In this document: positions 50,010 through 51,711 of the stretch, one piece after another | Layout of the letters: every line of letters starts with the position of its first letter | Numbering within the stretch: position 1 is the stretch's first letter | Sequence record: PP400787 | Strand: one strand, 5' to 3' | Length of the DNA stretch: 64,000 bases | Source: Escherichia phage FL23 | Notes under the pieces: model-generated | Told to the model about the DNA's origin: nothing | Seen by the model: the letters and a program-made list of their open reading frames with translations, nothing else | Database searches by the model: none | Translations under genes and position numbers: made by a program

Positions 50010-50082
50010 TGGGAATTAGCCAAGTTGGTAAGGCACTGGATTTTGATTCCAGGATGCAAAGGTTCGAGTCCTTTATTCCCAG
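50010..50082 (+). tRNA. tRNA-Gln (anticodon UUG)
   Basis: Manual cloverleaf: acceptor tgggaat/attccca, anticodon loop ttttgat, T-arm ggttcgagtcc. Confidence 0.85.
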
Positions 50083-50083
50083 C

Positions 50084-50170
50084 GCGAGAATGGCCAAATT
50101 GGTAAAGGCACAGCACTTAAAATGCTGCGGAATGATTTCCTTGTGGGTTCGAGTCCCACTTCTCGTACCA
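50084..50170 (+). tRNA. tRNA-Leu (anticodon UAA), CCA encoded
   Basis: Acceptor gcgagaa/ttctcgt, long variable arm, T-arm gggttcgagtccc, 3' CCA. Confidence 0.85.
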
Positions 50171-50176
50171 AAGTTT

Positions 50177-50247
50177 GCGGATATCGTATAATGGTATTAC
50201 CTCAGACTTCCAATCTGATGATGTGAGTTCGATTCTCATTATCCGCT
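50177..50247 (+). tRNA. tRNA-Gly (anticodon UCC)
   Basis: Acceptor gcggata/tatccgc, anticodon stem tcaga/tctga with loop cttccaa. Confidence 0.85.
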
Positions 50248-50260
50248 CAAATTTAATTTA

Positions 50261-50334
50261 CTCCGTGTAGCTCAGTTTGGTAGAGCGCCTGATTTGGGAT
50301 CAGGAGGTCCAAGGTTCAAATCCTTGTATGGAGA
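50261..50334 (+). tRNA. tRNA-Pro (anticodon UGG)
   Basis: Acceptor ctccgtg/tatggag (two G-U pairs), anticodon loop tttggga, T-arm caaggttcaaatccttg. Confidence 0.8.
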
Positions 50335-50336
50335 TT

Positions 50337-50423
50337 GGAGGCGTGGCAGAGTGGTTTAATGCACCGGTCTTGAAAACCGGCAGTCGCTCCGGCGACTCAT
50401 AGGTTCAAATCCTATCGCCTCCG
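50337..50423 (+). tRNA. tRNA-Ser (anticodon UGA)
   Basis: Acceptor ggaggcg/cgcctcc, anticodon loop cttgaaa, long variable arm, T-arm aggttcaaatcct. Confidence 0.85.
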
Positions 50424-50430
50424 TAATTTC

Positions 50431-50503
50431 GCTGATTTAGCTCAGTAGGTAGAGCACCTCACTTGTAATGAGGACGTCGGCGGTTCGATTCCGTCAATCA
50501 GCA
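50431..50503 (+). tRNA. tRNA-Thr (anticodon UGU)
   Basis: Acceptor gctgatt/aatcagc, anticodon loop cttgtaa, T-arm cggttcgattccg. Confidence 0.85.
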
Positions 50504-50509
50504 TATCAA

Positions 50510-50581
50510 GGCCCTGTAGCTGGAAGGTTCAAGCAAGCGACTCATAATCGCCAGATGGTGGTTCAATTCCACCCAGGGCCA
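50510..50581 (+). tRNA. tRNA with CAU anticodon (Ile by analogy with T4, where CAU is lysidine-modified; Met not excluded)
   Basis: Acceptor ggccctg/cagggcc, anticodon loop ctcataa, T-arm ggttcaattcc. Confidence 0.75.
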
Positions 50582-50622
50582 TATTTTGAGAACATAAATA
50601 CTCTTAGAAATAGGAGATATTT

Positions 50623-51288
50623 ATGTTCCATTACATTTATAAAATAACAAATAAAATTAATAATAAAATCTATATAGGCGCTCATTCTACCGAAAATTTA
50701 GATGATGGATATATGGGTTCTGGTAAATTATTAAAAAGAGCCCAAGATAAGTATGGTATAGAAAATTTTTCTAAAGAAATATTAGAGTTCTTTGACGATA
50801 AAACCTCTATGTTTGAGTCAGAAAAGAATATTGTGACTGAAGAGTTTTTAAAGCACCCTGATGTTTATAATTTGAAATTAGGTGGTGAAGGTGGTTGGGA
50901 CCATTTAAACACTAAAGAATATTTGGATAAAAAGAAAGAAGCTTCCTTAAAAGGAGCTGCCGCTTTTAAAACCAGATTTGAGAACGACCCAGACCTTAAA
51001 GAAAAATATCGTAAAATGGGTTCAGAAAGGTTTAAACAGCTTTGGGATAATCCTAAGTATAGAGAGAAATTTTTAAATACTAAATCTTTCTTGGGTAAGA
51101 CCCATACTCCTGAAACTATTAATAAAATGAAAGAATCTCACGCTAAAAATAATCACCAGAAAGGTGAAAAGAATTCCCAATTTGGTATGATGTGGATTCA
51201 TTCATTAGATGAAAAAGTTTCTAAACGTATTAAGAAAACTGACCCAATTCCAGAAGGATGGTTTAAAGGTCGAAAAATGAAATTTTAA
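50623..51288 (+). CDS. segB: GIY-YIG homing endonuclease (SegB-like) inserted in the tRNA cluster
   Basis: 221-aa ORF with GIY-YIG motifs (HYIYKITNK...KIYIGAH) and C-terminal IPEGWFKGR tail; located between the CAU tRNA and tRNA-Arg. Confidence 0.8.
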   Translation: MFHYIYKITNKINNKIYIGAHSTENLDDGYMGSGKLLKRAQDKYGIENFSKEILEFFDDKTSMFESEKNIVTEEFLKHPDVYNLKLGGEGGWDHLNTKEYLDKKKEASLKGAAAFKTRFENDPDLKEKYRKMGSERFKQLWDNPKYREKFLNTKSFLGKTHTPETINKMKESHAKNNHQKGEKNSQFGMMWIHSLDEKVSKRIKKTDPIPEGWFKGRKMKF

Positions 51289-51291
51289 CTA

Positions 51292-51367
51292 CGAGGCATA
51301 GCTCAGAAGGAAGAGCAAGGACCTTCTAAGTCCTGGGTCGTAGGTTCGATCCCTACTGCCTCGACCA
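51292..51367 (+). tRNA. tRNA-Arg (anticodon UCU), CCA encoded
   Basis: Acceptor cgaggca/tgcctcg, anticodon stem aggac/gtcct with loop cttctaa, T-arm gtaggttcgatccctac, 3' CCA. Confidence 0.8.
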
Positions 51368-51711
51368 GACAAGAAGCCGGGTCGCTACCGGCAAGTCGTC
51401 GGACTGATGTTCCCTGTTTAAGGACTGGCATTAACAAATCTTTACGATCTGCTAATGCCCCCTTATATCACAGCAGAAACGGCGCACCGAATTATCGATT
51501 CGAGGAAATATCTTTGCCATAAGCCGAGTAGCGTTTTTGACGGAACGTTCGGATATGGTCGAGATATGGCCTTTTAAAAATATTGAGTAGCGTCAACTGC
51601 TTAATAACCGGGTTCGAATCCCGGCGTTTCGTACAAACACTTGCCTTAGCAGGTGGAACCCCGACAAGGTTGCCGCAAGGCTTAGCCCCGACCGAAAGGT
51701 TGGGGCTTTTT
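51368..51711 (+). ncRNA. Small stable RNA region downstream of tRNA-Arg (T4 species-1/species-2-like), includes a tRNA-like element and the operon terminator
   Basis: GC-rich structured sequence without credible coding potential; acceptor-like stem cggaacg/cgtttcg with canonical T-arm ccgggttcgaatcccgg (51541-51632); terminator ccccgacc-gaaa-ggttgggg + T-run (51685-51711). Confidence 0.45.

Follow-up and report, generated by a model that had tools for sequence, protein, structure and literature searches.

A T4-type tRNA operon in Escherichia phage FL23 and its rnaC RNA, a probable remodelled tRNA

What do the roughly 345 noncoding bases 3' of the last transfer RNA (tRNA) gene of Escherichia phage FL23 encode? 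The question arises at positions 50010 to 51711 of the analysed stretch of record PP400787, which is 64,000 nucleotides long and is called the window below. An initial annotation, made from the sequence alone, had described a tRNA cluster interrupted by the endonuclease gene segB, followed by a tRNA-like stable RNA region, in the arrangement of the T4 tRNA operon. Both the region and the arrangement were borne out: alignment placed the window colinear with the annotated T4 record (AF158101) across the operon, and the RNA region corresponded, by T4 alignment, to rnaD plus rnaC. The locus is an already known one, a textbook T4-type tRNA operon. Positions 50010 to 51711 are read here, with high confidence, as a Tequatrovirus tRNA operon built as in T4 and carrying rnaD and rnaC, of which rnaC is a remodelled tRNA.

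rnaC and rnaD were among the first phage RNAs to be sequenced. In the T4 record, one strand carries in order the tRNA genes for Gln, Leu, Gly, Pro, Ser, Thr, and Ile, then segB, tRNA-Arg, rnaD (“species 2 RNA,” 119 nt), and rnaC (“species 1 RNA,” 139 nt). The window shares this gene order, with all operon elements on the plus strand, as well as the terminator and the upstream flanking open reading frames (ORFs) trna.4, trna.3, and trna.2. It differs from T4 in that the tRNA-Ile and tRNA-Arg positions hold other alleles (63.5% and 65.8% identity) and in that the sequence 3' of the terminator diverges. In a search of phage records, positions 49900 to 51800 aligned with the Tequatrovirus Escherichia phage FL44 at 100% identity, and 889 records matched this region, nearly all of them T4-like. 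The boundaries of rnaD and rnaC in the window are the annotated T4 ends transferred by alignment. The noncoding bases 3' of tRNA-Arg are closed by a G+C-rich hairpin and a T run. Based on 200 shuffles each, fold z-scores were −4.1 for 51495-51633, −2.9 for 51369-51488, and −3.5 for 51634-51715, with 0 to 1 of the 200 shuffled sequences folding as well as the real one; the noncoding stretch is therefore more structured than expected by chance.

rnaC was identical to T4 rnaC at 136 of 139 bases (97.8%), with ends and position that coincide in the alignment, and nothing material differs between the two. The only match of covariance model R1 in the window was rnaC (154.7 bits, E 9e-32). Both rnaC and rnaD of T4, known for decades, were detected anew as expressed RNAs by Northern blotting in 2022 (PMC9697503), and by analogy rnaC would be expected to accumulate in FL23 as a stable RNA of ~140 nt. 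What is added here over T4 rnaC is a comparative fold (a cloverleaf, probable kissing hexaloops, and a presumed elbow contact) and a distribution outside Tequatrovirus.

The family alignment comprised 26 distinct rnaC sequences from about ten phage genera. These formed two sequence classes whose middle parts are barely alignable, with the same fold in both, a tRNA-like cloverleaf whose ends are the RNA ends annotated in T4. Across the whole model, 89.8% of cells paired, compared to at most 48% with the partners slid, and 16 pairs changed on both sides. Folding the rnaC sequence of the window without constraints gave this cloverleaf as the minimum-energy structure (−50.6 kcal/mol, z −4.1). Acceptor pairs 2, 3, 4, 7, and 8 were 100% Watson-Crick, pair 4 showing a clean switch from G-C (19 sequences) to A-U (7 sequences), and the stem contains two adjacent U-U mismatches (51499-51500 with 51627-51628) that are invariant in 26/26 sequences, with covarying neighbouring pairs. 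The hairpin in the D-arm position (H1) carries the hexaloop UUGACG at 51537-51542. Its apical stem was 100% paired, with 4/5 pairs changed on both sides, and its lower stems were paired in 98.9% of cells in class 1 and 90.3% in class 2 (at most 53% with the partners slid), 8 pairs having changed on both sides in class 2. All nine stem pairs of the hairpin in the anticodon-arm position (H2) changed on both sides somewhere in the family. The middle pair of the T arm was U-A in 15 sequences, G-C in 9, A-U in 1, and U-G in 1.

This cloverleaf revises the tRNA-like element first annotated at 51541-51632, in an annotation that had itself marked the stable-RNA boundaries as uncertain. The T arm of that element stood (51608-51624), whereas its 5' acceptor strand, placed at 51541-51547, is instead found at 51495-51502. 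It is improbable that the tRNA-like unit is 51541-51632 after all, with an acceptor formed by 51540/41-51547 and 51626-51632 and with the ~46 nt upstream as a 5' extension or another RNA. The helix in question is present (ACGGAAC/GTTTCGT, 51540-51546 with 51626-51632, 7 bp with one G-U), makes 8 perfect pairs in Enterobacter phage id4496, and is paired in 85.7% of cells family-wide. Exactly this part of the id4496 homologue is called a 95-nt “tRNA-Met” by ARAGORN and in the GenBank record, and the Rfam tRNA-Sec model gave a weak match at 51540-51632 (16.6 bits, E 6.8, chance level). The helix can also be extended past the discriminator into the trailer, in a segment that changes in step with the hexaloop in Marfavirus, and a precursor fold is possible. 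However, both-side changes were absent from every pair of this helix, and mismatches were found in 16/26 sequences at pair 49-139 and in 10/26 at pair 50-138. Its 5' strand falls in the loop of H1 and on the 3' side of the apical stem. The helix thus cannot coexist with the H1 apical stem or with the loop-loop pairing described below, does not occur in the minimum-energy fold, and leaves the T4-annotated 5' end (equivalent to 51495) unexplained. Rejected as the main fold on its lack of both-side changes and its mismatches in 16/26 sequences, it is for the same reasons at most an alternative pairing of the precursor. The tRNA-Sec match and the id4496 tRNA-Met call reflect its misleading complementarity. 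A 5'-extension helix crossing it, as a pseudoknot, was also rejected, since class-2 homologues showed that helix to be the lower part of H1.

Two tertiary contacts are proposed within the cloverleaf. The hexaloops of H1 and H2 were complementary at 6/6 loop-loop pairs in all 26 sequences; one pair was A-U in 21 sequences and G-C in 5, and five Marfavirus-type sequences carried the joint change from UUGACG/CGUCAA to UUGGCG/CGCCAA. On the basis of this complementarity and covariation, the two hexaloops probably form a kissing loop. Both classes have 4 + 5 pairs beyond the H1 hinge and 9 pairs in H2, a geometry in which distal H1 could fold back onto the H2 loop. The second proposed contact involves the GG at 51568-51569, just 5' of the closing CC of H1. 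The first G forms G-U with T-loop position 2 in 22 sequences, replaced by C-G in 3, and the second G is part of a G-C pair in 26/26. These bases are presumed to behave like G18-G19 of tRNA, making an elbow contact with the T-loop. In Winklervirus LC53 (L020 1426-1565) and the related viral contigs L027, L028, and L030, the T-loop is UGCAUCC or UGCAUGC, not UUCGAAU, and the presumed elbow GG is CG; with the altered T-loop, the SegB core motif is lost from their rnaC.

The identification of the locus meets no contradiction, and its weaker points concern rnaC. The acceptor stem combines its two invariant U-U mismatches with what is mostly a third U-U at the first position. In class-1 sequences the helix of 51540-51546 with 51626-51632 is thermodynamically as good as the cloverleaf, which makes an alternative precursor fold possible. 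Covariation of the kissing loop is confined to one lineage, the five related Marfavirus-type sequences, and was not extended past it among the metagenome loci listed and 71 viral-contig loci; that of the elbow contact also comes from one lineage. A second possible partner of the H1 hexaloop is the 3' end plus trailer (CGU-A-CAA), which it can pair to with one bulge and which is changed in Marfavirus too. Lastly, the function of rnaC and rnaD was called unknown in 2010 (PMC3014915), 2022 (PMC9697503), and 2025 (PMC12685909).

rnaC is tRNA-like and not a tRNA, as it escaped the tRNA detectors (at 51495-51633 ARAGORN called nothing and no match to the Rfam tRNA model reached the gathering score) and has a hexaloop instead of a 7-base anticodon loop. 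A genuine decoding tRNA, or a decayed pseudo-tRNA, would share with rnaC the canonical T arm, the acceptor stem, the discriminator, and the location in tRNA arrays, and one homologue is a tRNA-Met according to ARAGORN. Either identity is nonetheless very unlikely for rnaC, given that neither ARAGORN nor Rfam at gathering score called it in the window, that the loop of its “anticodon” hairpin is an invariant 6 bases complementary to another loop, and that it has no D arm of normal size; its strong conservation and compensatory changes argue against a decaying pseudogene. Nor is rnaC a transfer-messenger RNA (tmRNA), as there was no ARAGORN tmRNA call and no Rfam tmRNA match at gathering score or in a scan of 49800-51900 at E ≤ 10. 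The tRNA-like domain of tmRNA and other tRNA mimics resemble rnaC in that they combine an acceptor stem and discriminator with a T arm, lack a usable anticodon, and are presumably matured by tRNA enzymes. Unlike tmRNA, rnaC has no tag reading frame and keeps four arms, and it would seal its “anticodon” loop by an RNA-RNA contact, whereas tmRNA replaces the arm with the protein SmpB. YrlA, a bacterial Y-RNA-like RNA, is likewise a small structured RNA with a tRNA-like module, but Rfam YrlA matches were found only over tRNA genes (25.8 and 15.7 bits versus a threshold of 69), and the ends of rnaC form an acceptor stem, not a Ro-binding stem.

Within 51368-51711, which covers rnaC, rnaD, and the trailer, no Rfam family reached its gathering score, and the scan of 49800-51900 at E ≤ 10 returned only chance-level matches there (E 1 to 7). 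The FL44 record (PP400790) and many sister records instead have two “hypothetical protein” genes, 51455-51577 and 51583-51768, over rnaD, rnaC, and the terminator, and the id4496 record annotates the 3' 95 nt of its rnaC homologue as tRNA-Met. Both ORFs are open in the window. That 51455-51768 encodes two small proteins of 40 and 61 amino acids is nevertheless hardly credible: the ORFs overlie RNAs annotated in T4, where the first is shortened (TGA in place of the window CGA at 51560); the TTG start of the second lies inside H2 and is CAA, AAT, or GCA in other genera; and the homologues carry 1- and 2-base indels along with substitutions that are compensatory, of the RNA-helix type. Rfam contains no family for either rnaC or rnaD, and a covariance model would correct the GenBank misannotation, both of the small proteins and of the 95-nt tRNA-Met.

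Sensitive BLAST revealed rnaC beyond Tequatrovirus in Mosigvirus (RB69 and JS09), Kagamiyamavirus, Karamvirus, Moonvirus, Gelderlandvirus, Kanagawavirus, Winklervirus, and Marfavirus. In most of these other genera it is embedded in a large tRNA array, where the ...CCA of tRNA-Trp or tRNA-Phe ends a few bases 5' of it and the next tRNA begins directly 3'. For distant relatives, 80 listed metagenome loci were searched with the covariance model; among them was at least one true rnaC match, which is Marfavirus-like (L061). A looser scan of viral contigs gave 0 rnaC matches in 71 new loci. In JS98, rnaD is fused to the trailer, and the absent segment (window 51492-51635) is almost precisely rnaC. 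An ORF occupies the rnaC position in MN01, the trailer and terminator are all that AV114 retains, 3' of tRNA-Asn, and some Mosigvirus genomes retain just the trailer. The trailer and terminator are conserved as a unit even without rnaC or without both RNAs (L005 2622-2699, L008 2501-2601, and L039 923-986) and follow rnaD in JS98, tRNA-Asn in AV114, and the inserted ORF in MN01. The layouts of JS98, MN01, and AV114 indicate that rnaD, rnaC, and the trailer-terminator are separable cassettes.

The neighbouring rnaD is a two-domain structured RNA that is unrelated to rnaC and also travels with tRNA genes. It was identical to T4 rnaD at 101 of 120 bases. Like T4 rnaD, it follows tRNA-Arg and has the 5' hairpin, the closing helix, and the conserved motifs; it differs in sequence (84% identity) and in its 3' end, which is ...CACCG in the window and ...CACCA in T4. 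Its architecture was common to 20 variants, with a central hairpin swapped wholesale between lineages. A tRNA-like structure was considered for rnaD and rejected, as the closing helix leaves a 3' overhang of only 1 to 2 nt and there is no T arm. rnaD-like RNAs were found beside tRNA genes in Dhakavirus, Gaprivervirus, Mosigvirus, Karamvirus, Jiaodavirus, Mosugukvirus, and Marfavirus, and also in the Vequintavirinae phage A7_1 (L035 1423-1606), where the 5' hairpin has a compensatory change. A T4-like phage evolved on semipermissive ECOR34 acquired a convergent single-nucleotide polymorphism (SNP) in rnaD in each of its three lines (PMC12685909). It lies at about position 41 of rnaD, adjoining the conserved GUUCCCUG motif, and is one hint of a host-dependent function.

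The operon would be transcribed from upstream promoters, and its long precursors, by analogy, would be cut by host tRNA maturation enzymes. With its acceptor stem, discriminator, and T arm, rnaC would be matured like a tRNA, the trailer presumably being removed in the process, and since CCA is not encoded, CCA addition would be needed. With the “anticodon” loop sealed by the H1 hexaloop, rnaC could not decode, and it may thus present a tRNA body to enzymes without decoding. Its most likely function, suggested with low confidence, is that of a tRNA mimic engaging a tRNA-binding factor of the host or phage. A more specific and rather doubtful proposal is that rnaC is a tRNA-derived decoy of enterobacterial T4-like phages, with rnaD as a second counter-defence module, both spread by SegB-type endonucleases. 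If so, rnaC would sequester or divert a host factor that targets tRNAs (a defence nuclease or a tRNA-modifying toxin, for example) or would tune a maturation enzyme; the acceptor stem, T arm, and elbow would be what it keeps for tRNA-binding proteins, and the kissing hexaloops would be its sealed “anticodon.”

It is alternatively conceivable, though unlikely, that rnaD, rnaC, and the trailer are functionless structured spacers that aid the folding, protection, or processing order of the precursor and accumulate through their stability. This would fit the lack of a known function for either RNA in the 2010, 2022, and 2025 papers, the description of the tRNA gene region of T2L and T4 as not essential for phage development (PMC2330249), and the genomes from which rnaC is missing (JS98), in which an ORF takes its place (MN01), or in which the trailer stands alone (some Mosigvirus genomes). 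However, rnaC maintains invariant loops, invariant mismatches, and an elaborate fold over about ten genera, and its helices have diverged through compensatory substitutions. This is selection at the level of the RNA. The array slot that it fills in other genera is one where a plain spacer of 5 to 10 nt is enough for the neighbouring tRNAs. rnaD-like RNAs, for their part, are kept as far away as Vequintavirinae, and the rnaD SNP in all three evolved lines was convergent and adaptive (PMC12685909). The comparative rnaC model provides a testable structure, in which mutations can be aimed at either hexaloop, at the invariant U-U mismatches, or at the GG of the elbow contact. Beyond this model, a covariation-backed correction of the rnaC cloverleaf, the present analysis contributes coordinates for rnaD and rnaC, a wider distribution for both, and the misannotation in the records. 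The features are listed in Table 1.

Table 1. Positions of tRNA genes, structured RNAs, segB, and terminator in the FL23 window
Feature	Position	Strand	Basis and remarks
tRNA-Gln (UUG)	50010-50083	+	ARAGORN; Rfam 67.4 bits; 87.8% identity to T4
tRNA-Leu (UAA), CCA encoded	50084-50170	+	ARAGORN; Rfam 61.7 bits; 97.7% identity to T4
tRNA-Gly (UCC)	50177-50248	+	ARAGORN; Rfam 65.8 bits; 97.3% identity to T4
tRNA-Pro (UGG)	50261-50334	+	ARAGORN; Rfam 66.8 bits; 100% identity to T4
tRNA-Ser (UGA), long variable arm	50336-50424	+	ARAGORN; Rfam 62.6 bits; 97.8% identity to T4
tRNA-Thr (UGU)	50431-50503	+	ARAGORN; Rfam 73.5 bits; 94.7% identity to T4
CAU tRNA, predicted tRNA-Ile2 type	50510-50581	+	ARAGORN; Rfam 59.9 bits; 63.5% identity to T4 tRNA-Ile
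segB, free-standing GIY-YIG homing endonuclease gene	50623-51288	+	221-aa ORF; Pfam; similarity to T4 SegB
tRNA-Arg (UCU), CCA encoded	51292-51367	+	ARAGORN; Rfam 65.8 bits; 65.8% identity to T4 tRNA-Arg
rnaD (species 2 RNA)	51369-51488	+	Alignment to T4 misc_RNA; 84.2% identity; fold −36.6 kcal/mol, z −2.9
rnaD 5' hairpin	51376-51392	+	Fold, variants
rnaD closing helix	51395-51401 with 51480-51487	+	Fold, variants
rnaD conserved motif GUUCCCUG, among conserved internal segments	51409-51416	+	Variants
rnaC (species 1 RNA), tRNA-like cloverleaf	51495-51633	+	T4 alignment; covariance model; minimum-energy fold
rnaC acceptor stem, 8 positions	51495-51502 with 51625-51632	+	Pair counts; discriminator A at 51633
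rnaC hairpin H1, “D-arm” position, ~25 irregular pairs	51504-51571	+	Pair counts, both classes
rnaC hairpin H2, “anticodon-arm” position, 9 bp	51582-51605	+	Pair counts; hexaloop CGUCAA at 51591-51596
rnaC T arm CCGGG-UUCGAAU-CCCGG	51608-51624	+	100% paired; carries SegB core motif
3' trailer, three small hairpins	51634-51683	+	Fold; outside the rnaC annotated in T4
Intrinsic terminator	51684-51712	+	10-bp stem (7 G-C) with loop GAAA, 51684-51707, then TTTTT; identical in T4
Trailer plus terminator			94.9% identity to T4

tRNA genes were called in the 64-kb window with ARAGORN and the Rfam tRNA model RF00005 (gathering score, 29 bits). Eight were found by both methods, all above the gathering score (59.9 to 73.5 bits, E 3e-14 to 2e-10), at the places where the initial annotation had put genes for Gln, Leu, Gly, Pro, Ser, Thr, a CAU anticodon, and then Arg; the Rfam check it had suggested thus upheld all of its calls. 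ARAGORN found no further tRNA in the 64-kb window. The phage tRNAs would supplement the host tRNA pool. The anticodon arm of tRNA-Gln differs from that of T4 as a compensatory block (CACTGGA-TTTTGAT-TCCAGG versus CATAGCA-CTTTGAC-TGCTAG), the remainder being identical. CCA is encoded only for tRNA-Leu and tRNA-Arg in this phage; it is unencoded for tRNA-Gly, where positions 50245-50250 read CCGCTCAA compared to CCGCTCCA in T4, and for tRNA-Thr, where positions 50500-50508 read CAGCATATCAA compared to CAGCACCAA. The CAU tRNA occupies the T4 tRNA-Ile slot as a different allele. Its best Escherichia coli matches (~80% identity over 94% of the query) are annotated as tRNA-Ile; based on these nearest relatives, it is assigned to the tRNA-Ile2 (lysidine) type and not to the methionine tRNAs, and is predicted to read AUA.

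The GIY-YIG endonuclease gene segB, which had also been recognized between the CAU tRNA and tRNA-Arg from the sequence alone, was confirmed by a Pfam GIY-YIG match (PF01541, residues 3 to 71, 26.6 bits versus a cutoff of 22.6) and by full-length, gap-free similarity of its product to T4 SegB (186/221 residues identical, 84%). DNA identity to T4 segB was 85.9%, and the insertion site is that of T4, between the CAU tRNA or tRNA-Ile slot and tRNA-Arg. The 27-bp site cut by T4 SegB has the T-loop motif GGTTCRANTCC at its core, and cleavage there drives segB and neighbouring tRNA genes into related phages without segB (PMC2330249). SegB of T6 is required for tandem amplification of the adjoining tRNA gene and rescue from the Septu defence (PMC13096335). 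All seven copies of GGTTCRANTCC in the 64 kb lie in this locus (0.12 expected), in six tRNA genes and in the rnaC T arm (51611-51621). By analogy, SegB of FL23 would cut T-loop motif DNA in phages without segB, spreading itself and the flanking tRNA genes, and it could also amplify neighbouring tRNA genes under defence pressure.

The tRNA genes on either side of segB are alleles diverged from those of T4. As the flanking alleles differ, the tract predicted to be co-converted upon cleavage is not that of T4. The 3' end of tRNA-Arg is similar to that of JS98 tRNA-Arg, and the CAU tRNA of the Vequintavirinae phage A7_1 is, by eye, nearly the same as the window CAU tRNA over its 3' two-thirds. Diverged alleles around segB, together with an allele common to an unrelated phage, fit a history of repeated exchange at the site. 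The rnaD-like RNA of A7_1 lies directly 3' of its CAU tRNA, an arrangement that points to cassettes of tRNA plus small RNA exchanged between unrelated phages. The mosaic around segB agrees with the recent view that tRNA clusters are counter-defence cassettes open to exchange.

The strong terminator noted in the initial annotation was recovered as a 10-bp stem and T run at 51684-51712. No T4 late-promoter consensus TATAAATA was found in 50000-51800; the nearest copy on the plus strand, at 49664-49671, is located within the ORF resembling trna.2, ~340 nt upstream of tRNA-Gln, and the consensus is enriched window-wide (23 copies versus ~10 expected). Sigma-70-like matches in the region were no more common than in shuffled sequences, and no promoter is claimed.

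Three plus-strand ORFs around the operon (48413-48670, 48735-48980, and 51802-52365) all start with MKT(F/Y)(K/Q/A)EF, which resembles the N-terminal sequence that targets T4 internal head proteins to the capsid. The last of these, a 187-codon ORF directly after the operon terminator, had no Pfam match and is not at that place in T4; it may encode a polymorphic internal protein.

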